Source: an uncultured virus (IMG/VR IMGVR_UViG_2690315929_000005) (Duplodnaviria > Heunggongvirae > Uroviricota > Caudoviricetes). From it: a stretch of DNA of 64,000 nt. The notes below the pieces were generated by a model, which saw nothing but the letters and a program-made list of their open reading frames with translations, was not told the DNA's origin and did not search any database. The stretch's first letter is position 1; every line of letters starts with the position of its first letter. A program made the position numbers and the translations under genes. Shown piece by piece: positions 9,954-64,000 of the stretch. The stretch lies in IMG/VR virus record IMGVR_UViG_2690315929_000005, positions 1 to 64,000 of that record, one strand, 5' to 3'.

Positions 9954-10784
9954 TTATCTTCTTTTAGGTTTTGTTCTATGCTTGCTTGTTTTTTTTCTAA
10001 CTTCTGATCTGGCTACTTTATCTTCCCACCAATCTGGCATGGGCTCTGGGGTTACTTGTAGTATGTCTGCAATTGCAGAAATTAAACTATAAGATTGAAT
10101 CCCATCTATATGTTCAGATAGAGTTGGTGATACATCTTGCCTTAATGGGTCTAAGATGAAGTCTATTCCTTTTGTTCTTGCGTGTTTAGCTGCCGGGACA
10201 AAATCTGAGTCACCAGCCACCAAAACCATTACATCTACTAATTTTTCATATGCAAGCATGGTTATATCCATGCCTAGCTTAATGTCTACAGCTTTTTGTT
10301 TTATGTCGTAATGAAAATCATCATTGGTCAGTTGTTCCCATTTTTTCCGGCCAGCAAGAAGATCTTTGAGCGTGTGTTCATTTATTTGCCAACGCTTACT
10401 ATCAACTAGTGTTCCCATTCTAAGGGCTGTTTTTCTGCTTTTCCTTAACTCTTCATGGAGTTCTGTTCTTAGAATATAAGATGGCTCTAGTTTAAAATTT
10501 TTCCTTGGTGGCGACGTGTGCCCTTTTTCGGCTGGCAACGGGTACCTTGTTTGTATATCAAGAGGTGGGCAATCGTAGAAATAAATTCGGTATAATTCCA
10601 GTGGAGATCTATGCTCATGAGAGCCATGTCTTTTGTTCAAGTGATACTGAACAAGCCCCCATATTAATTTCATTAGATGAGATGCATTTAAATCATGACC
10701 TTTAAAATGCTTACGCCTTACAGCGTTAACTCGTGAGATAAAGAATCCTGCATCAATAAGAATAGCTGTCTTTTTCATAATCAA
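9954..10784 (-). CDS. NYN-domain (LabA/DUF88, PIN-like) RNase in the immunity region
   Basis: AILIDAGF, YRIYFYDCPP, QKAVDIKLGMD, AGDSDFVPA. Confidence 0.85.
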   Translation of the reverse strand: MIMKKTAILIDAGFFISRVNAVRRKHFKGHDLNASHLMKLIWGLVQYHLNKRHGSHEHRSPLELYRIYFYDCPPLDIQTRYPLPAEKGHTSPPRKNFKLEPSYILRTELHEELRKSRKTALRMGTLVDSKRWQINEHTLKDLLAGRKKWEQLTNDDFHYDIKQKAVDIKLGMDITMLAYEKLVDVMVLVAGDSDFVPAAKHARTKGIDFILDPLRQDVSPTLSEHIDGIQSYSLISAIADILQVTPEPMPDWWEDKVARSEVRKKTSKHRTKPKRR

Positions 10785-19130: not shown

Positions 19131-19311
19131 CTTAATCGCAGCTATTGAAGAAGCAAGATATTTAAAATACAAATCAGGCGGTCGAGTTAACTTCTGTGTA
19201 ATGCAAGTTATGGACTATATGGAAGTGGTAAGCGGGCTGATGGATGGTGTCAGGGTTTTATATACAACTGCCAATGATGATTATCACACAGTATTACCGG
19301 AGGCGAGATGA
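19117..19311 (+). CDS. Small nin-region protein
   Basis: FTDLIAAIEEARYL; translationally coupled. Confidence 0.6.
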   Translation: MMFTDLIAAIEEARYLKYKSGGRVNFCVMQVMDYMEVVSGLMDGVRVLYTTANDDYHTVLPEAR

Positions 19312-19811
19312 GCTATATCGGAGAAAAGGAATTAACAGATGAGCAGTTTCGCTGGCTTGATGGTTGGTTAAATCTGTGGGGGGCTTGGGTATATTCTGGT
19401 CGTATCGATATTCGCATGATCAATATGATTTATAAATTCATGCAAACAGTTGAGCCAAGTAAAAACCCATCAAGACCTATGTGCAATGACGATGAAGGAA
19501 TGTTGATTTCTCAGGTCGTAGATTCAGTCATCGCCACTGACACACAGGCTTATGGAATATTACTAAGTTATTACGCTCACGGATCATCTAAGTTGTCGAT
19601 TGCATCTTACTATCACCGAGTTGCAAAACCACGCAAAATGCAAACAAGAGGGGGGAATAAATACGCCAAGCCATCTCATAGAACTTGCAGGAGAGAAGTC
19701 GATGAAAAACTCAAAGCTGCTCAGTGGTTATTGTACGAACCTCTGCGAAATGCAATGAATAATCGTAAACGTGTAGCTAAAGTAAAGAAAATAGCTGAAC
19801 TTTGCTATTGA
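19308..19811 (+). CDS. Q: Late antiterminator Q
   Basis: WL.LWGAW, RPMCNDDEGMLIS; followed by pR' and a terminator. Confidence 0.85.
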   Translation: MSYIGEKELTDEQFRWLDGWLNLWGAWVYSGRIDIRMINMIYKFMQTVEPSKNPSRPMCNDDEGMLISQVVDSVIATDTQAYGILLSYYAHGSSKLSIASYYHRVAKPRKMQTRGGNKYAKPSHRTCRREVDEKLKAAQWLLYEPLRNAMNNRKRVAKVKKIAELCY

Positions 19812-19840
19812 CATTAATGGACAAATGGACAACAATTATA
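19808..19840 (+). promoter_or_regulatory. Late promoter pR'
   Basis: TTGACA at 19808 overlapping the Q stop; AACAAT 17 bp downstream. Confidence 0.6.
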
Positions 19841-19884
19841 AGGTAAGTTGCTTTACGTGACTCTTAAGTTTGCTTACCTCATTC

Positions 19885-19908
19885 AAGACCTCGCTACGGC
19901 GGGGTTTT
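19885..19908 (+). terminator. tR' terminator
   Basis: ACCTCGC-TACG-GCGGGGT-TTT hairpin. Confidence 0.7.
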
Positions 19909-19971
19909 AGCTTATAAACATTGAAAATAATGCATATTTCCCATATTGTACTTGTGTGTTAAGTAAGTACG

Positions 19972-20064
19972 GTCGTGGGGTGCTGACATCCCCGATCTGA
20001 GCACAATCCTCGGCAAGGGATTATACTTAATGAAAGCCTGATAGAGATATCGGGCTTTTTTTTT
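19972..20064 (+). ncRNA. Candidate small structured RNA with possible pseudoknot and terminator
   Basis: GGGG/CCCC stem with loop TGCT complementary to downstream AGCA, a second hairpin, then a strong terminator with T9. Confidence 0.4.
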
Positions 20065-20078
20065 GTATCTAAAATCCG

Positions 20079-20145
20079 AACAGTGCCCCTCATAACCTCT
20101 ACGCAGAACGGAGAAATCTGGTTTGCGATACGTTTGGGGCTTTCT
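20079..20145 (+). ncRNA. Orphan copy of the Abi-associated RNA element
   Basis: 66/67 nt identical to 63044-63110; no abi gene follows. Confidence 0.7.
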
Positions 20146-20352
20146 ATTTTAATTCCCCGAATTCGAGGGAATAAGTTTTTGATATTTATCCAGAGTGCTT
20201 ATTTGCATTGTGGTAATCCAACTCTCCGGAAATTCCGGATAGTTCACATTCAGAAGATCGCTTAGGCGGTCTTTTTTCGTATATATTAATTTGCCTTTAG
20301 CTTTATATCTTCTTGTCATAAAATGTAATTTGGATTTTTGCAAGGAGATGTA

Positions 20353-21120
20353 ATGAACCAATTAGAATTGCCATTAATTTCTAGGCAGGAAAACAATGTA
20401 GTTATTTCACAAAGAGCTCATGATGGATACATAAATGCTACTGCAATGTGTAAAGCGGCTGGCAAGTTGTTAGGGCATTATTTGGAAAATTCAACAGCTA
20501 AATCATTTCTATCTGAGTTGTCAGCCGATATCGGAATTCCGATATCGGAACTAATTCAAACAGTTAGAGGTGGATTTCCTCAAATGCAAGGCACTTGGGT
20601 TCATCCGCAGGTAGCCATCAACTTAGGTCAATGGGCTTCACCTAAGTTTGCTGTTCTTGTTTCAAAATGGGTATTCGATTGGATGTCTGGTGCAAAACAG
20701 CATCAATCAGCGATGCCATATCATGTAAGGCGTTACTTAATTAATCGGGAAAAAATACCGCCAACTCACTTTTCTATGCTGGATCAAATGACTTTAAAGT
20801 TATTAGCTCCATTAGAATCTAGAGGGTATATGCTCCCACAAAAACTTATGCCTGACATATCTTTAGGTAGATTCTTTAGCGATATTCTCAGGGCTAGAGG
20901 TTATGATCCTGATTCATTTCCTGTTTATGAGCATAAATTTGATGATGGAAGAAGACCAGTTGTTGAGGCAAGGCTTTATCCAAATGAGTTAATGACAATG
21001 TTTAATTTTGAAATTAACAACTGGATAAAGAATAAATCAATAACTTACTTTAAGGGTAAAGATAAAGAAGCATTACCTCATCTGAATGATATAATATTAG
21101 CCTTACCAGCCCCAGAGTAA
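20353..21120 (+). CDS. KilA-N domain protein
   Basis: DGYINATAMCKAAGK, QGTWVHPQVAINLGQW.SP.F. Confidence 0.9.
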   Translation: MNQLELPLISRQENNVVISQRAHDGYINATAMCKAAGKLLGHYLENSTAKSFLSELSADIGIPISELIQTVRGGFPQMQGTWVHPQVAINLGQWASPKFAVLVSKWVFDWMSGAKQHQSAMPYHVRRYLINREKIPPTHFSMLDQMTLKLLAPLESRGYMLPQKLMPDISLGRFFSDILRARGYDPDSFPVYEHKFDDGRRPVVEARLYPNELMTMFNFEINNWIKNKSITYFKGKDKEALPHLNDIILALPAPE

Positions 21121-21264
21121 TTATGAATCACTTATAGCAAGCCTCACTTTTAGTGGGGCTTTTTCGTATATGCCGACCACAGAATCAATCACAACACCTC
21201 ACGTTCACACAAGAGCTGTGAGTCGGCGTTCTATTAACTAAATTCCTCCTATGGGGAGGTAGGT

Positions 21265-21621
21265 ATGAAACGTATGCCAGAAAAATTCGAATGGGAGCAG
21301 ATTTTACGCTGGTTACAATCGGTCCTCCCACTCTTAGGTGGATTTACTATTGCTACAACAATTGCATACATCAGAGAAAGACAGGCTGGTTCTCAATGGA
21401 AGCGTTCTTTAGGTGAGGCCGTTATGTGTGGCTTGCTTAGTGTTGGAACTATTCGGTTTATTGATTGGTGGCTATCACGTAGTGGTGATGCTAGTTCGTG
21501 GGCATTATTGGCGGAATTCTGTGGTGTTGTAATTGGATTTTTAGGGACAAAGAAACTATACGCACTTTTTGAGGGTGCGGTCAAAATAGTAAAGGCTAAG
21601 TTTGGAGTTAAAGATGACTAA
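21265..21621 (+). CDS. Holin, lambda S-like, with dual-start motif MKRM
   Basis: Three hydrophobic segments, EAVMCG, IGFLG; hairpin over the RBS. Confidence 0.85.
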   Translation: MKRMPEKFEWEQILRWLQSVLPLLGGFTIATTIAYIRERQAGSQWKRSLGEAVMCGLLSVGTIRFIDWWLSRSGDASSWALLAEFCGVVIGFLGTKKLYALFEGAVKIVKAKFGVKDD

Positions 21622-22018
21622 ATCAGCACGCGGGGAAAGAAACAACAACCCTGGTAATATTCGACACGGTTCAAAATGGCAAGGACTATCTGCACAGCAA
21701 ACCGATGAAGACTTTTGCCAATTCGTGTCACCTGAATATGGTATACGAGCAATCTATGTATTGATGCGAACCTACGAAAATAAATACGGGTTGTGTTCTA
21801 TCCGTGAAATCATCAATCGCTATGCTCCGCCCAAAGAAAATAATACTGAGGGATACATTCATCGAGTCGCTAAAGAATTGAATGTAAGTACGGAAGATTG
21901 TGTATCAGTCAACAAAAAAGAAGTTGCGATTGCATTGGCCACAGCGATTGTTGGTGTTGAGCTGGGTTATCAGCCTTACAGCCCAAAAGTATTTGAAGAT
22001 GCATGGTTGTTGTTATGA
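21614..22018 (+). CDS. Putative endolysin (lysozyme-like, NNNPGNIR family)
   Basis: RGERNNNPGNIR, F.SPEYGIRA, RYAP..ENNT..YI; lies between holin and Rz. Confidence 0.75.
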   Translation: MTKSARGERNNNPGNIRHGSKWQGLSAQQTDEDFCQFVSPEYGIRAIYVLMRTYENKYGLCSIREIINRYAPPKENNTEGYIHRVAKELNVSTEDCVSVNKKEVAIALATAIVGVELGYQPYSPKVFEDAWLLL

Positions 22019-22470
22019 ATCTAGGCGAAACGATAGTGTCCGTGTGCGTTATTTTGATGATGAGCGTCGGTATGACGTGGCAGGGTAACAGGATTGGTAA
22101 GCTAAAAGCTTCAAATGCTGAATTAACTAGTCAACTATCTCAACAAGTCGAAATCAACAAAGACTACCAAGCTCGTATCACTCGACTAAATCAACTCGAT
22201 ATTAAATATACTCAGGAGTTAGCCAGTGCAAAGAATGAAATTGACACTCTTCGTGATGCTGTTAACTCTGGTTCTAAGCGGGTGTATGTCAAAGCCGAGT
22301 GTCCAGCAGTCACCAAGAATCCCACCGAAAGCGGAAGCAATGAAGCCACCGCACGACTTAACAAAGCAGTTGAACAAGATTATCTACGTCTCAGAGAAAT
22401 GATAGTCGAGAACGAACAGCAAACTTTGTATTTGCAGAATTACATTAACACTGAATGCCTCGCTCAATAG
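22015..22470 (+). CDS. Rz: i-spanin Rz
   Basis: N-terminal TM segment, LDIKYTQELA.AK.EI..LR, LQNYI...C. Confidence 0.9.
   Translation: MNLGETIVSVCVILMMSVGMTWQGNRIGKLKASNAELTSQLSQQVEINKDYQARITRLNQLDIKYTQELASAKNEIDTLRDAVNSGSKRVYVKAECPAVTKNPTESGSNEATARLNKAVEQDYLRLREMIVENEQQTLYLQNYINTECLAQ
22235..22402 (+). CDS. Rz1: o-spanin Rz1 lipoprotein embedded in Rz
   Basis: MKLTLFVMLLTLVLSG-C lipobox and Pro-rich body in an alternative frame within Rz. Confidence 0.8.
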   Translation: MKLTLFVMLLTLVLSGCMSKPSVQQSPRIPPKAEAMKPPHDLTKQLNKIIYVSEK

Positions 22471-46591: not shown

Positions 46592-47803
46592 ATGAAGCTA
46601 ACAGCCAGACAAGTAGAGACTTCCAAGCCAAAAGAGAAAGCTTATAAACTTTCTGACGGAGGGGGCATGTATTTAGAAGTTGCTCCGAATGGTTCTAAGT
46701 ATTGGCGTATGAAATATAGATATGCTGGTAAAGAGAAAAGGCTGGCTTTAGGTGTATACCCATCAATATCACTCGCACAAGCTAGGGCGAAGAGAGAAGA
46801 AGCCAAGCGCATATTAGCGTTAGGTGATGATCCATCTTTAGTGAAGAAAGCAGAAAAGAGAGAGAAAGAATCTCAAGTAAATAATAGCTTTGAAAAAATT
46901 ACGCTTGAATGGCATGACTATAAAAAGCCGAATTGGTCAAAAGGTTATGCGGATGATTTACTAGAAGCCTTCCAGAAAGATATCTTTCCTTATATTGGTA
47001 AAGTTAGCATTACAGAAATTAAACCGTTAGATATGTTAGAAGTGCTTCGGAAGTTAGAAAAACGCGGTGTGTTGGATAAGCTTAAAAAGATAAGGCAGGC
47101 ATGTAACCAAGTATTCCGCTATGCAATTGTGACAGGACGGGCTGAGTATAATCCCGCATCAGAATTAGCCGGCGCACTGTCTACTCCAAAAGCTAAGCAT
47201 TTTCCTCACTTAAATGTGAATGAGTTACCTGAGTTTTTACAGGCACTATCTGTATGTAGTGGAAGTAAGATCACTCAGATTGCGACAAAGCTATTAATGA
47301 TAACAGGCGTTCGTACTATTGAGCTTAGAGCTGCTGAATGGTCAGAAATTGATTTTGATAAAGCTATTTGGGAAATTCCAAAAGAACGTATGAAAATGCG
47401 TCGCCCTCACATGGTGCCATTATCTACACAGGCCTTAGAATTATTCAAAGAAATACAAACCATAACAGGAAAGTTTAAGTATATCTTTCATGGTAGGAAT
47501 GATGCTTCTAAACCAATGAGTGAAGCGGCCATAAATCAGGTTATCAAGCGTATTGGTTATGATGGTAGAGCCACAGGTCACGGATTCAGACATACAATGA
47601 GCACCATCCTGCACGAACAAGGCTATAACACTGCATGGATTGAGACTCAACTTGCACACGTTGATAAAAACTCTATTCGTGGAACGTATAACCATGCTCA
47701 GTATATTGATGGCCGTAGAGAAATGCTTCAATGGTACGCTGATTATATGGATACTTTAGAGAGCGGGGATAATGTTGTCCACGGTAACTTTAAACGTGCT
47801 TAA
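46592..47803 (+). CDS. int: P4-family tyrosine integrase
   Basis: KLSDGGGMYL.V...GSKYWR.KYR, HGFRHTMST.L, QLAH, YNHA; GGGGGCAT arm-type repeats at 46541-46560. Confidence 0.96.
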   Translation: MKLTARQVETSKPKEKAYKLSDGGGMYLEVAPNGSKYWRMKYRYAGKEKRLALGVYPSISLAQARAKREEAKRILALGDDPSLVKKAEKREKESQVNNSFEKITLEWHDYKKPNWSKGYADDLLEAFQKDIFPYIGKVSITEIKPLDMLEVLRKLEKRGVLDKLKKIRQACNQVFRYAIVTGRAEYNPASELAGALSTPKAKHFPHLNVNELPEFLQALSVCSGSKITQIATKLLMITGVRTIELRAAEWSEIDFDKAIWEIPKERMKMRRPHMVPLSTQALELFKEIQTITGKFKYIFHGRNDASKPMSEAAINQVIKRIGYDGRATGHGFRHTMSTILHEQGYNTAWIETQLAHVDKNSIRGTYNHAQYIDGRREMLQWYADYMDTLESGDNVVHGNFKRA

Positions 47804-58655: not shown

Positions 58656-58996
58656 TGGAAAAATTACAACGGTTAGCAAGCACTATAGCCCAGATTTATG
58701 TTGATAATTTAAAAGCTGAAACAGGAGAAACATTAGTAACTTATAACGGTATCACAGGTAAAGTTACCCCTGAATTACTGGCCGCTGGATTGTTTGATAA
58801 TGCGGTATTTGCGGTTAAAGCGGATGGAGAAGAGATTGACGTTGAAGGTAAGGCGTATGATTTACTATCCCCGTTAATTAACTTATCAACAAAGCCTTAC
58901 TCCCTAACGGGACAGGCATATAAATTGATTAATTTTCTCAATGTGCAGGCACTAAAAGCAGGAAGCACTTTATCAACCTTATCAGTTGTACATTAA
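58655..58996 (+). CDS. Hypothetical protein upstream of the satellite tape measure gene
   Basis: 113-aa ORF. Confidence 0.65.
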   Translation: MEKLQRLASTIAQIYVDNLKAETGETLVTYNGITGKVTPELLAAGLFDNAVFAVKADGEEIDVEGKAYDLLSPLINLSTKPYSLTGQAYKLINFLNVQALKAGSTLSTLSVVH

Positions 58997-59012
58997 TCAC
59001 AGGGAGAAAATT

Positions 59013-62000
59013 ATGTATCATGGCGAAGGTTACACAGTATATGTAGATGCCGATACGGCCGGCCTTCTTGAGGCTAACCGTGAAATCGAAAAAGCAAGAA
59101 GAAAAATAAATGATTTAGGCAACGAAGCAAACACCACAAGCAAATCATTTACTCAATTCAATAAATCAGCAATCGCGGTTTCCAGTGCGTTAAAAATGCC
59201 TGAAATAAACCGCTTATCACGTCAAATGAGTGAATTGGCGGGGCAAATTGGCGCTGCTTCAATGGCAACAGATAAGGCAACGACTGTTAACGCGCGTTTT
59301 ACAGGTGTGATTAGCAATGTGTCTGGGCTACTAGGGGCGGGATATGTTTCTAATATTGGTAGCGCTACTGTTTCGCTCTTGCAACATACTCAAGGGGCAA
59401 TTAATGCCACACAAGCCGAGGTTTTACATACTCGCGCTATTCAAATGAAGGCTCAGGCATTGCAAGCTGCTGCCTCCCAAGAAGTGATTAACGCCAAAAA
59501 TCTTAAAGCATCAACACAAGCAGAGCTAAAAGCAGCTCAGGCAGCGTTAGAACACGTTTATTCATTAGAAGGCTCTAATGATATCAAGCAGCGTAATTTA
59601 GAGTCACTTAGGGCACGACAGGCAGCAGTGCTCAAGGATGCTGAAATAACTTATCAAATGACTGCGAGTGAAGAAAATTTGCAGCGAGTGACTAAAGCCA
59701 GTAATGCGCTACATGCTACGGAAACTAAAATAAAAACGCATTTAGCTACAACCGGAAAAGAAATTGCGCTTGTTGAGGCTAGAGTCGCTAAAGCAAAAGA
59801 AGCAGAAACACTAGCAACTCAAAAATTAAATGCGGCATTAGCATTAGAGCAAAAAGCGAAAGCCACACTAGCCACTACAACAGACGCGGTGACCGTAGCT
59901 AATGGTCGCGCAGCCCAAGCGGCTAGAAGTCAATCCATTGCTATGCAAGGATTGCGAGGTGTTGTGGGGTTATTAGGTGGCCCAACGGGTGTTTTTATGT
60001 TGGCTACTGCTGGCGTGTATGCGCTATATAACGCGATGAATGATGACACCGCAACGAAAGAGTTTAATGACAGAGTAGATCAGTGGATTGATAAAATTGA
60101 CGAACTGTCAGCCAAACAGGCTCGCGCTGTGGCTAACCGCTTAGGCGAGAAGATAGCGGAAACAACCACACAACTAGAGGGACAGAAAAAAAGTCTTTCC
60201 AGTGTTAATTCAGATCTAAAAAGATATGAAAATAGACTTGCTGATATTAATAAAGAGATTCAAAGACAAAAAGAACAAGGTTTTGAAGTAGGTAAGTCTT
60301 ACGTTCAGGATGATATAGTAAAGGAAATCGAAAAACTCACCAAGAAACAGCAGCAGTATGAGCTGATTATTTCAGAAGGTGAGCAGAATATTCGTCGCTG
60401 GACGGTATCACAAGGTAAAGCCGCTAATATTGCAAAAGAGAGAGCAAAACAAACAGACGAACTCAGCAGAGCGGAATTAATTTATCAACGCCAAGCTAAA
60501 GGGATAGTTGATGCTAACCAACAATTAGCTAGATCACTAGAGCTAGGCAGTGACGCAGCCGTTAAGAAAGAACAAGCCATCAAAGAGTTAGAAAAGGCTT
60601 TAATTGCTGATGGTTTTGTTAAAGACTCCGAGTTATTTAAACAAAAAATACAAGAGTTAACGGATGAGCTTGATAAGAAGGCAAGTTTAAACCTTGCTAA
60701 CTCTCTTGCTGAGATAGAGCAACGAACACAAGCCCTCACTATTGGCATGAAAGACGGTAAGCCTGCACTGGATGAATACAATGCCTCGTTACTGCTTATG
60801 CAAATGGGGATAAAAAAAGGTTCGGCTACCTACAATACCGAACTCCCGAAAGCGATAGAGGCAATACGCAATTTACGTGAAGCTCAAGAAGCCGCACTAA
60901 ATAGCAAATCAAATGCTAACAAGTCGTTGAAAGCGATTAATAAGGCAAATGATGCCATTAAAAAACAACAGCAACAGACTGAGACGTTAAGAAAAGAATT
61001 TGAATTATTGAGTTCTGGCGCAGCTAACGTAAATAGAGAGATGGCTATTTTTAACGCTGTTCAAAGTCTGGGTGCTGATGCGACAGACAAGCAAAAGAAA
61101 GCTATTGCTAAAGAAGTCGCCGAAGTTTTTGACCTCAAACAAAAAGTCGATGACTTTATTAAGTCGCAAGAAATTACTCCAGAGTTAAAACTTGCAAGAG
61201 CATTTAGACAAGAATCTGAAGAGCTTAAACGCATGTTTGATAATGATTTCATTGATGAAGAAACGTTTAAGGCGTTAGGCAATAAAGCAATGAAGGCATT
61301 TGATGCTGGAATGGCTGAAATAAAAATAAACGCGGTTATTGACCCAATAACTGAAGCCAAAGGGCAATACGACCCGATACAAGCACTGGCTAACGAACAC
61401 GCTAAGAAACTTGAGATGATCCGCCAATTCGAAACAGAAAAAGGCGCTATTACTCAGCGTGGCTTAGAGTTAATGAATGCCGCTAATACTCAATATGAGC
61501 AAGACCGGTTAAATGCTCAATGGGAGATATGGCGCAATCAAAGCCAAGCCAATCAATTCTTAGCTGATGGGTTGGACGCATTAGGACAGCGCTCTACTAA
61601 CGTACTCACAGGGCTATTAACTCAAACACAATCCATTAACGATGCTTTCCGTAATGTCGCCTTAACCATCGTAGACCAAGCCGTTGGCGCTCTGGTCCAA
61701 ATGGGTATGCAACAAGTTAAGAATATGATTATGGGTGAAAGTATGGCGACAGCCGCTCAAGCATCTGCATTGGCTCAGGCTGCGGCAGCACAAGCGGCAT
61801 GGGCACCAGCGGCATTAAGCGCATCAATAGCCACATTAGGCGCAGCAGTAGCAACGGGAACATCATCATATACGGCGGCTATGGCAGCTAGTAAAACGAT
61901 GGGGTTGGTTGCTGGTGCTCGTAAAAATGGTGGACCCGTAAATGCTGGCTCTATGTATCGAGTGGGTGAAGGTGGTAAGCCTGAGATATTCAAAGCATCT

Positions 62001-62243
62001 AACGGTAGTCAGTACATGATACCGGGTGATAATGGTCGAGTTATTAGCAATCGACAAATGGGTAAAGGTGGTAATGGTGTCAGCATGGGTGATATGAACT
62101 TTACATTCCAAGTTCAAGCACCTAATGGCATTACTCAAAAGGAGGCGCAACAAATACAGCAAATGGTGAGAGGTACGGTTTATGACGTACTTGGTAACGA
62201 AATGCGTAGCGGTGGTGCTTTGGAAAAAGTAAGAAGTTGGTAA
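59013..62243 (+). CDS. Satellite-encoded tape measure protein
   Basis: 1076 aa from the ATG with GGAG RBS; shares LGGP.GV.MLA, DPIQ.L.NE.AKKL and AGARKNGGPV.AGSMYRVGEGGKPEIFKA blocks with the prophage TMP. Confidence 0.88.
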   Translation: MYHGEGYTVYVDADTAGLLEANREIEKARRKINDLGNEANTTSKSFTQFNKSAIAVSSALKMPEINRLSRQMSELAGQIGAASMATDKATTVNARFTGVISNVSGLLGAGYVSNIGSATVSLLQHTQGAINATQAEVLHTRAIQMKAQALQAAASQEVINAKNLKASTQAELKAAQAALEHVYSLEGSNDIKQRNLESLRARQAAVLKDAEITYQMTASEENLQRVTKASNALHATETKIKTHLATTGKEIALVEARVAKAKEAETLATQKLNAALALEQKAKATLATTTDAVTVANGRAAQAARSQSIAMQGLRGVVGLLGGPTGVFMLATAGVYALYNAMNDDTATKEFNDRVDQWIDKIDELSAKQARAVANRLGEKIAETTTQLEGQKKSLSSVNSDLKRYENRLADINKEIQRQKEQGFEVGKSYVQDDIVKEIEKLTKKQQQYELIISEGEQNIRRWTVSQGKAANIAKERAKQTDELSRAELIYQRQAKGIVDANQQLARSLELGSDAAVKKEQAIKELEKALIADGFVKDSELFKQKIQELTDELDKKASLNLANSLAEIEQRTQALTIGMKDGKPALDEYNASLLLMQMGIKKGSATYNTELPKAIEAIRNLREAQEAALNSKSNANKSLKAINKANDAIKKQQQQTETLRKEFELLSSGAANVNREMAIFNAVQSLGADATDKQKKAIAKEVAEVFDLKQKVDDFIKSQEITPELKLARAFRQESEELKRMFDNDFIDEETFKALGNKAMKAFDAGMAEIKINAVIDPITEAKGQYDPIQALANEHAKKLEMIRQFETEKGAITQRGLELMNAANTQYEQDRLNAQWEIWRNQSQANQFLADGLDALGQRSTNVLTGLLTQTQSINDAFRNVALTIVDQAVGALVQMGMQQVKNMIMGESMATAAQASALAQAAAAQAAWAPAALSASIATLGAAVATGTSSYTAAMAASKTMGLVAGARKNGGPVNAGSMYRVGEGGKPEIFKASNGSQYMIPGDNGRVISNRQMGKGGNGVSMGDMNFTFQVQAPNGITQKEAQQIQQMVRGTVYDVLGNEMRSGGALEKVRSW

Positions 62244-62309
62244 TTAAAAGCGTGGATAAAAACCATAATAGGGCAGATTTCTGCCCTTTATAGTATTGAA
62301 GGGTACATA

Positions 62310-62678
62310 ATGATAAAGATAAAAGTATCTAAAAGGAAAGGTCGCAATCAATCATTTCTACAATATTGCCAGCATGTAGATCAACGAGTATCACGGGCTA
62401 TGCAACGGTTTCTTTTCGATGCTGGAGCACAATCCGCAATTTATACGCCTATCGATACATCAACATTGATTAATAGTCAGTTTAGGGATGTTACTGTTAA
62501 TGGTACAAAAATAACGGGACGTATTGGTTACTCCGCCAGCTATGCCGTTTATGTGCATGATCCGAAAGTTAAGCAGAAATTTAAACGACCAACAGCTAAA
62601 AAAGAGTTCTTGAAAAAAGCGGTCGAGGAAACGCTACCTAATTTAACTAAGTATATTCATGAAGAATTGAAGAGTTAG
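62310..62678 (+). CDS. Satellite-encoded HK97 gp10-like neck/tail-completion protein
   Basis: AIYTPIDTSTLINSQFR.VTVNGT..TGR.GY.A.YAVYVHDP..KQ.F shared with 32114-32482. Confidence 0.88.
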   Translation: MIKIKVSKRKGRNQSFLQYCQHVDQRVSRAMQRFLFDAGAQSAIYTPIDTSTLINSQFRDVTVNGTKITGRIGYSASYAVYVHDPKVKQKFKRPTAKKEFLKKAVEETLPNLTKYIHEELKS

Positions 62679-62705: not shown

Positions 62706-63043
62706 CGTGGAAGGAAATATGCAAAAAACAACCAAAAAGAAACCAACCATTATTTTTATGATGTACCGACAATGCGCCTAATTGTGACGTGTGAACAATC
62801 CATCAACATTCACATAAGAGCCGATAGAGTAACAGGGGCAATCATGAGGAGTTTGTGAGGCAAGCAATCATTGAGAAGCTAAAAAAAAGCAACAGCACAA
62901 ATAGCTAAATCGCTATATGTATGTGTCAATAACTTGGTTATAGCTATATATATTGTGTTTACGTTAAAAAAATAGACAGGTAATTACAAGCTCATAATGA
63001 TTAGCCCCTAGACAAGATAAATATATTCAGTATTATTTATCCC

Positions 63044-63113
63044 AACAGTGCCCCTCATAACCTCTACGTAGAACGGAGAAATCTGGTTTGCGATACGTTT
63101 GGGGCTTTCTTTT
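63044..63113 (+). ncRNA. Abi-associated structured RNA, candidate antitoxin
   Basis: GCCCC...GGGGC closing stem plus U-rich tail, between a TAGACA-16-TATTAT promoter-like sequence and the abi start. Confidence 0.65.
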
Positions 63114-63143: not shown

Positions 63144-64000
63144 ATGCACCCTCTAAAACCTCATCTAACGTATTTTGACCAAATAAAAAAGCTAGAAAAA
63201 CGAGGAATGAGTTTTGAGGATCTACCTCCTGAGCAGGCGGTAAAGAAAATAATGAATATTGGATATTACAGGCTATCTGGGTATTGGTATCCATTCCGTA
63301 AGTTAAAGTTAATCCCACCAGTAGCACCCGATGAAGCCAGACGTGAAGAAACATTCCTTGAGGGTACAACCTTTACAACGGTATACGCACACTATTTATT
63401 TGATGTAAAACTAAGAAGTTCTATTTTTTATGGAATAGAACGAATTGAAACTTATCTTAAAGCAAAAATAGCTTACGAACTAGGTAAAGTATCCCCTACG
63501 GCATACAAAGATAAGAATATCATCCAATACAGACATCACTACCGACATGATACATGGCTAGAAAAGTTAGATTCTTTAATAGAGCGAAATAGTGATAAAG
63601 ATTGTATACGATGGAATTTAGATAAGTATGGGGATATTCCTATATGGGCTATCGTTGATATTTGGGATTTCGGTACAATGTCTCGCTTCTACGGAATGCT
63701 TGAAGATAAATACAAACATCAAATTTGTAAATCGCTTGGCTTTCTAAAGCCTAACTCAGCAAATGTAAGAGATGGACTGAAAACAGCATTAGAGCACCTT
63801 AATACAGTTAGAAACAGGTGTGCCCACCATGCGCGTTTATGGAATACCGATTTTTCAGACTCAAAAATTAGCATCGATGTGTTAGATAATATTGATTTAA
63901 CAGCCTCGCGCTTGTCTCCAAAAAGCCCTGAACTATCAAGAATGGCAGGTATCATATTTTTAATATGGAGTCTGACCAAGAGAATAAGTTGTAATTCTAC
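63144..64000 (+). CDS. Abi_2 (AbiD/AbiF-like) HEPN abortive-infection protein; runs off the window end and is missing from the ORF track
   Basis: KPHLTYFDQI..L.KRGM, IGYYRLSGYW, YLFD.KLR...IE.IE, PIW...DFG..S, HEPN motif RNRCAHH. Confidence 0.9.
   Translation, partial: MHPLKPHLTYFDQIKKLEKRGMSFEDLPPEQAVKKIMNIGYYRLSGYWYPFRKLKLIPPVAPDEARREETFLEGTTFTTVYAHYLFDVKLRSSIFYGIERIETYLKAKIAYELGKVSPTAYKDKNIIQYRHHYRHDTWLEKLDSLIERNSDKDCIRWNLDKYGDIPIWAIVDIWDFGTMSRFYGMLEDKYKHQICKSLGFLKPNSANVRDGLKTALEHLNTVRNRCAHHARLWNTDFSDSKISIDVLDNIDLTASRLSPKSPELSRMAGIIFLIWSLTKRISCNS

Follow-up and report, generated by a model that had tools for sequence, protein, structure and literature searches.

A toxin-free copy of an AbiF-type RNA in the late leader of a lambdoid prophage: a candidate antitoxin decoy

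The late leader of a lambdoid prophage carries a near-exact copy of the structured RNA that precedes the Abi_2 (AbiF-type) HEPN toxin gene of a neighbouring satellite, and the phage copy is probably a captured antitoxin that serves as a late-expressed decoy against AbiF. Both copies lie in the window, that is, the whole stretch of 64,000 nt that was analysed (positions 1 to 64,000 of the IMG/VR virus record IMGVR_UViG_2690315929_000005); the entire 69.6-kb provirus record, in which the prophage is followed by the satellite, contains exactly these two. In pairwise comparison, 20079-20145 and 63044-63110 are identical at 66 of 67 nt, the single mismatch (C/T at position 26) turning a C-G into a U-G pair, and within the window this is the sole long repeat of such identity joining distant parts. 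The flanks of the two copies do not align and identity drops to background level outside the 67-nt match, which bears out the original prediction that the match stops at the boundaries of the element. Its placement of the satellite copy 5′ of an Abi_2 HEPN gene, and of the phage copy in the late leader without a toxin gene, held as well, the latter with the addition of a KilA-N/BstA-like gene in the same interval. Judging from the named matches, the host is presumably a relative of Proteus or Providencia. The phage copy lies among the following features of the prophage (R1 is a covariance model described below):

19308..19811, + strand: Q antiterminator of the prophage (PF06530, E 4.4e-22)
19808..19836, + strand: predicted pR′-type late promoter (TTGACA-17-AACAAT, 10/12; role inferred from position)
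19886..19909, + strand: predicted tR′-type terminator hairpin (found by eye, not by terminator scan)
20032..20059, + strand: intrinsic terminator, 20 nt 5′ of the orphan RNA (12-pair stem and U tract)
20079..20147, + strand: orphan AbiF-type RNA, candidate antitoxin decoy (R1 27.0 bits, E 3.5e-6)
20353..21120, + strand: KilA-N/BstA-like gene in the late leader (PF04383; PADLOC BstA E 3.4e-11)
21265..22470, + strand: lysis cassette of holin (starting at 21265), probable endolysin and Rz (PF05106, PF03245)

The hairpin at 19886..19909 is seen again behind Q in related phages, and a weak promoter-like site (19921-19949) lies upstream of the terminator at 20032..20059. The RNA itself (fold z = -2.39) consists of an outer stem, a small bulge, a 3-bp helix, a CUCU/AC internal loop, a variable apical hairpin and a U-rich tail. 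Between Q and the holin no Abi_2 gene is present; the middle gene of the lysis cassette has no Pfam match. BstA proteins of prophages cause abortive infection and come with a DNA element for self-immunity, and because of the KilA-N/BstA-like gene, which begins about 200 nt 3′ of the RNA, the Q-holin interval does contain a defence-like gene. The idea that the RNA is the leader of this gene was rejected, as a close homologue of it follows the RNA in only four of 60 orphan loci.

The satellite copy has a different setting:

46592..47803, + strand: integrase at the satellite start (followed by AlpA, AntA, Ash, isrK, C4, primase, ProQ/FinO)
58986..62678, + strand: tape-measure-like and tail-completion-like genes of the satellite (phrog_1107, phrog_5; DNA repeats D1, D2)
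63009..63036, + strand: sigma70-type promoter (TAGACA-16-TATTAT, 10/12; the predicted start coincides with the 5′ end of the RNA)
63044..63112, + strand: cognate AbiF-type RNA, predicted antitoxin (R1 26.9 bits, E 3.9e-6)
63144..64000, + strand, stop at 64139 of the record: Abi_2/AbiF HEPN toxin gene, 331 aa (PF07751 E 1.4e-50)

Here the RNA begins 100 nt before the ATG (63144) of the Abi_2 gene, the product of which also matches AbiD of PADLOC (E 6.3e-58). A profile of 25 homologues gave a single strong match in the PDB, chain A of 8VZ6 (E 4.2e-56, full-length homology), which is the complex of PbAbiF with its ncRNA (PMC12737573, available text). The R-phi-xxx-H motif of HEPN proteins is intact (RNRCAH, residues 223-228), its R and H being invariant in the 25 homologues, and hundreds of contigs encode the same or nearly the same protein, the named ones being from Proteus, Providencia and Morganella. 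With an Abi_2 protein, the HEPN motif and an upstream structured RNA at a predicted transcription start, the locus resembles the characterised systems closely enough to be regarded as a probable type III toxin-antitoxin module of the AbiF/AbiD type, in which the RNA would be the antitoxin. A terminator scan called none on the + strand between the RNA and the toxin gene; the closing stem and U-rich tail of the RNA could act as a leaky terminator.

Some neighbouring genes deserve mention in their own right. The tape-measure-like (1085 aa) and tail-completion-like proteins of the satellite belong to the same PHROG families as those of the adjacent prophage, and no capsid genes were present among the satellite ORFs scanned; tail hijacking or tail interference are possible functions of these genes. 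Directly after abi lies a 223-aa gene (record 64421-65092; 8422-9093 of contig L003) without PHROG or PADLOC match, in place of which related satellites have, among the neighbours of abi copies, a different stretch of about 890 nt; the site is possibly a defence hotspot. On the side of the prophage, a gene for a NYN-domain protein (9954-10784) with weak PADLOC matches adjoins the repressor and is possibly another RNase defence.

The original prediction of an Abi-linked RNA element is confirmed by comparison of Abi_2 loci. Both arms of the RNA and the promoter are kept 5′ of Abi homologues with 63% and 56% identity (L084 and L085), the RNAs of which have a different and longer central hairpin than that of the window. 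When a simple stem-and-tail rule was applied, a hairpin of the same architecture was found 5′ of Abi_2 homologues at 130 of 166 loci versus 13 of 466 control stretches (111 of 145 loci after deduplication; a few matches look spurious), and in a held-out set at 36 of 76 Abi_2 loci versus 6 of 117 controls. The covariance model R1 was built from 45 RNAs of one subtype, which were picked by eye 5′ of distant Abi_2 genes with the clade of the window excluded. In this alignment 84.8% of the cells are paired and 13 of 15 pairs vary on both sides, a value as high as this being reached in none of 500 shuffles and slid controls remaining far lower. Within the window R1 found only 20079-20147 and 63044-63112 (next match, E 1.2), and on 81 further loci it gave 12 matches, of which one is in phage Ghual01 and the other 11 directly precede Abi_2 genes. 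Its sensitivity is limited: for the window copies the score is no higher than 27 bits, 13 of the 27 test loci were found at E<=1, and at this threshold a second class of alleles among the test loci (see below) is missed.

The search with the Rfam abiF model (RF03085) that the original prediction had proposed did not establish membership by score for either copy; neither is listed even at E<=10 (gathering cut-off, 37 bits), and no other Rfam family was assigned to them. RF03085 members likewise have a CCUCU-type loop after the outer stem, lie 5′ of Abi_2 genes and occur in phages, but because RF03085 gives the window RNA no score, the latter is treated as a sister subtype and not as a member. 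The Rfam model does score sister RNAs, namely that of L233 (37.0 bits), at the same position 5′ of another homologue, and one on L255. Further lineage-specific RNA subtypes were noted 5′ of actinobacterial, alphaproteobacterial and desulfobacterial Abi_2 genes (L085-L244, L304-L383); Rfam abiF found one of the 20 such loci scanned.

Toxin-free copies recur in phages of the Proteus/Providencia type. A 17-nt search pattern matched 71 viral loci, once per locus and never as a tandem repeat array: six were dropped as chance matches since the rest of the element is missing, five lie 5′ of satellite abi genes, and 60 are orphans. The latter include the copies in phage Q-lysis intervals that the original prediction had suggested to look for, as Q lies upstream in 59 of the 60 and a recognised lysis gene downstream in 45; these loci are not 60 independent events, some records being close relatives, and span at least three Q types. 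In all four matches to cultured phages the RNA is located between Q and the lysis genes. Phages that have the RNA include Pm34, Brookers, BPM-V3 and PSTNGR2lys. PF07751 is encoded in four of 66 whole records, each time as the satellite gene and never in the phage part, and no Abi_2 sequence was detected, among the matches listed, in 119 late-leader loci, 39 of which have short flanks. Sampled via an independent marker, 21 of 60 Q-bearing late-leader intervals carry the RNA, among the matches listed; it is an accessory, dispensable part of the Q-lysis interval.

What sets the orphans apart is the region upstream: the sigma70-type promoter is in place at 42 of 48 Abi-linked RNAs versus none of 59 orphans, and 47 of the 59 orphans have a terminator within 45 nt upstream. 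The RNA starts and ends at exactly the same points in 20 different upstream and 22 different downstream contexts. In the 31 phage alleles 98.6% of the cells are paired and changes are mostly G-C/G-U, the 17-nt search core being invariant by selection of the loci; in 14 of them two adjacent pairs are swapped together, which may be a single event. Twelve of the 60 orphans have the same sequence as the satellite allele. A second allele class (e.g., L009, L019, L034), with the two pairs swapped, makes up about 25 of 65 copies; the pairs altered include one that 44 of the 45 Abi-linked RNAs have as C-G, and no abi gene with this class was found among the Abi loci whose upstream RNAs were compared. 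A nearest-neighbour assignment of orphans to Abi RNAs from matching hosts is clear for the window only and weak elsewhere. A search of 20,395 E. coli records for the window element was empty; so was one of the 401 genomes of a sample at the level of Enterobacteriaceae, which is uninformative for want of a positive control. The sole match in a plasmid collection is a whole Proteus chromosome. Reads cover 20079-20147 in none of four RNA-seq runs (24 listed), two contigs from which are related phages that skip the element.

The Q-to-holin leader (window 19800-21260; L389-L468) is a mixture of non-coding modules in varying order, comprising the AbiF-type RNA, tRNAs and several uncatalogued hairpins of 30-150 nt. 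Rfam searches of 20 related late-leader loci gave tRNAs only, and a blastn search with the module at 19895-20075 against cultured phages was empty. In one hairpin of about 45 nt the inner segment occurs in both orientations between inverted arms (L443, L389, L446 and L465 versus L464, L457 and L399), that is, as a small inversion inside the stem. The other modules may be decoys, too.

AbiF-type RNAs without a toxin gene are also present in unrelated phages. Across the family, 55 viral matches comprise 23 with Abi_2 directly downstream and 32 without Abi_2 within 1.8 kb; all 32 score with R1, which is not independent of the search pattern. PF07751 was found in none of 33 family-wide orphan records, seven of which are at least 90% complete by CheckV and most of which are fragments. 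Many of these copies are flanked on both sides by structural genes (those for terminase and portal, for scaffold and major head, or for internal virion protein and tail fibre), and L262, L264 and L280 have a sigma70-type promoter of their own. Two candidates were rejected as orphans: L290, which lies 29 nt from the contig end and has the sequence of an Abi-linked allele, and L280, which is 239 nt from the contig end in addition to having its own promoter. The cultured, T7-like Pseudomonas phages Ghual01, MR1 and Ghuch01 (Ghunavirus), which we take to be strictly lytic, encode the RNA (57-63 bits) directly behind a repeated phage promoter and have no Abi_2; of 16 Pseudomonas phage records, three match across the RNA and 13 match the promoter alone. 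Cyanophage S-CBS4 contains a sub-threshold abiF match (34.3 bits) and no Abi_2. On L255 an RNA of the present subtype, a true Rfam abiF RNA and a tRNA-like gene, the anticodon arm of which is unusual, follow each other in a row (760-925), with no toxin on the 5-kb contig. Two enterobacterial Abi-linked RNA variants and one other orphan type gave no blastn match in 50,697 phage records, so phage copies are not known for every subtype.

In characterised AbiF the upstream RNA blocks the active site (PMC13064643), and in the system of C. difficile it neutralises the toxin in trans and tolerates compensatory changes of its stem (10.1101/2025.04.15.648962), as far as the available texts describe. 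PbAbiF-AbiFr (8VZ6; PMC13064643, PMC12737573) and AbiF-RCd22 of C. difficile (10.1101/2025.04.15.648962) share with the satellite locus an Abi_2 HEPN protein with intact catalytic motif and a structured RNA from a promoter (here, a predicted one) just 5′ of the gene; they differ in that the RNA described here is a single one of about 67 nt, of a longer subtype undetected by RF03085, in a gammaproteobacterial satellite. Toxin-free phage copies are not described in the available AbiF texts. Cyanophage S-CREM1 has an abiF RNA which, in the portions available, is given no mechanism and not called a decoy (PMC9964418; PMC12197685); an update on phage countermeasures from 2026 (PMC13728456, available text) does not mention AbiF, and the main text of Weinberg 2017 (PMC5737381) does not contain “abiF”. 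No paper on homologous toxin-free AbiF RNA decoys was found in the literature covered, which took in Zilberzwige-Tal 2025 and Rince 2000 through reviews and Weinberg 2017 through its main text; phage orphans could already be mentioned in Zilberzwige-Tal 2025 itself or in the supplement to Weinberg 2017.

The closest precedent is pseudo-ToxI of phage PhiTE, where likewise a phage has a copy or mimic of an RNA antitoxin, captured by recombination, but not the toxin; it acts on a toxin of the ToxN family, and its repeats were expanded in laboratory escape mutants of one phage (PMC3475682, available text). In contrast, the AbiF-type RNA is a single near-exact copy present at a late position in wild phages of several families; it is likely to work in the same manner as pseudo-ToxI, for a different toxin family. 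That AbiF can be blocked by a phage-derived hairpin follows from lactococcal phage sk1, a cos-region hairpin of which inhibits AbiF (PMC13064643; PMC12184496, available texts); the sk1 hairpin is reported to have no resemblance to the AbiF ncRNA, whereas the phage RNA in the window is a homologue of the antitoxin itself.

T4-like phages reportedly carry orphan antitoxin-like enzymes against DarTG1, so that there, too, an antitoxin is kept without its toxin as counter-defence, but as a protein enzyme, not as an RNA.

The mechanism proposed is as follows. The satellite promoter would give rise to the structured RNA of about 67 nt and, by read-through, to the HEPN RNase, which the RNA would bind and block. 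Lambdoid phages of Proteus and Providencia would have taken the RNA alone, without promoter and toxin, to a site behind the late terminator. Genes in such a position are off in the lysogen and expressed upon antitermination by Q; with its promoter lost and terminators upstream, the phage RNA should therefore be silent in the lysogen and abundant during lytic growth. The late RNA would top up the antitoxin at a time when the host pool would run down, thereby keeping the toxin off until lysis. It would serve as counter-defence against this Abi clade in general, with other RNA subtypes playing the same part in unrelated phages. Processing of the AbiF RNA is attributed to AbiF itself (PMC12737573, available text), an activity which, speculatively, could release the decoy from the long late transcript. 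We infer the antitoxin function from the characterised homologues, and also infer Q-dependent expression, release from or activity within the long transcript, neutralisation of the toxin and a benefit to the phage; late expression could come too late to counter Abi. The phage RNA resembles the predicted antitoxin RNA of the satellite almost perfectly, has the same R1 score and is present in phages lacking the toxin gene, the latter point resting partly on phage records of which many are incomplete. As for expression during infection, the location of the copies, behind late terminators or phage promoters, does no more than suggest it.

It is unlikely, although it fares best among the alternatives, that the RNA is of abi origin and has been kept as a cis element of the late transcript, i.e., as an attenuator, a nuclease-processing site or a stabilising hairpin, without acting on the toxin. 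The GC stem and U-rich tail at its end, the location of copies between late genes or directly behind phage promoters, and the many other hairpin modules of the same leader would suit such a role, for which the RNase III hairpins placed behind promoters in T7-like phages offer a parallel. It would, however, not account for the conservation, in orphans of unrelated phages, of unpaired positions of the family (5′ AAY, the CYCU loop, and AY before the stem), nor for two different abiF-type RNAs in tandem on one contig; further, the RNA is dispensable, as seen from the 21 of 60 intervals among the matches listed and the three of 16 Pseudomonas phage records that have it, and the downstream genes have no function in common.

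Improbable, too, is a role of the RNA as a pass common to satellite and helper, by which Abi would spare the phages that the satellite needs and abort others. Satellite and prophage do stand in tandem with common tail-gene families, the satellite allele accounts for 12 of the 60 orphan copies, and the prophage carries the RNA in the window as well as in two of three other tandem records, one of which looks almost the same as the window over the loci compared. A pass predicts enrichment of the RNA in likely helpers; yet among the matches listed a homologue of the satellite tail-completion gene is encoded in five of 16 RNA-bearing versus 11 of 28 RNA-free records (Fisher p 0.75; 44 of the 60 intervals, on contigs >30 kb, with the helper range inferred from one tail gene only), and little weight is given to it for this reason. 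One tandem prophage is devoid of the RNA (L440), and copies in a P22-like Lederbergvirus podophage and in T7-like phages are also difficult to reconcile with a pass. Thus, of the two interpretations put forward in the original prediction, counter-defence fits the conserved toxin-free copy behind late-leader terminators and its recurrence without abi, and the helper pass is not supported.

It is highly improbable that the phage copy has no function and is merely what was left of an RNA-abi module after deletion of the toxin gene: abiF genes are found in lysis modules of Bacillota phages (10.1101/2025.04.15.648962, available text), the near-identity of the two copies shows recent exchange and a few alleles break pairs (L048, L016, L077), but neither the remnants of promoter or gene that such an origin predicts, and which the original prediction had named as the point to check in related phages, nor decay were seen, as there is no Abi_2 sequence in the 119 late-leader loci (among the matches listed) or in the phage part of the 66 records, the promoter is missing from 59 of 59 orphans, the ends are exact, and pairing is retained.

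Defences of the AbiF family are common, and Cas13 has been proposed to descend from them; to our knowledge, little is known of how phages trigger or escape AbiF. Anti-defence elements made of RNA are invisible to protein-based searches and few have been described. Beyond the captured antitoxin as a late decoy, it may be, and is put forward here tentatively, that AbiF antitoxin RNAs are widespread unannotated anti-defence RNAs of phages, independently captured by lambdoid, T7-like and cyanophage-like viruses and transcribed late, and that the Proteus/Providencia leader is a decoy array, the other modules of which are directed against other RNA-sensitive defences. New in this respect is an AbiF-type counterpart to the idea of pseudo-ToxI, as a single near-exact copy that is widespread in wild phages. 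If these RNAs are decoys, the cultured phages with and without the RNA would be ready pairs for timing the activation of AbiF, and searches for orphan antitoxins could bring to light anti-defence RNAs in non-coding late leaders; the decoys would also account in part for how susceptible Proteus and Providencia are to phages, which bears on phage therapy.
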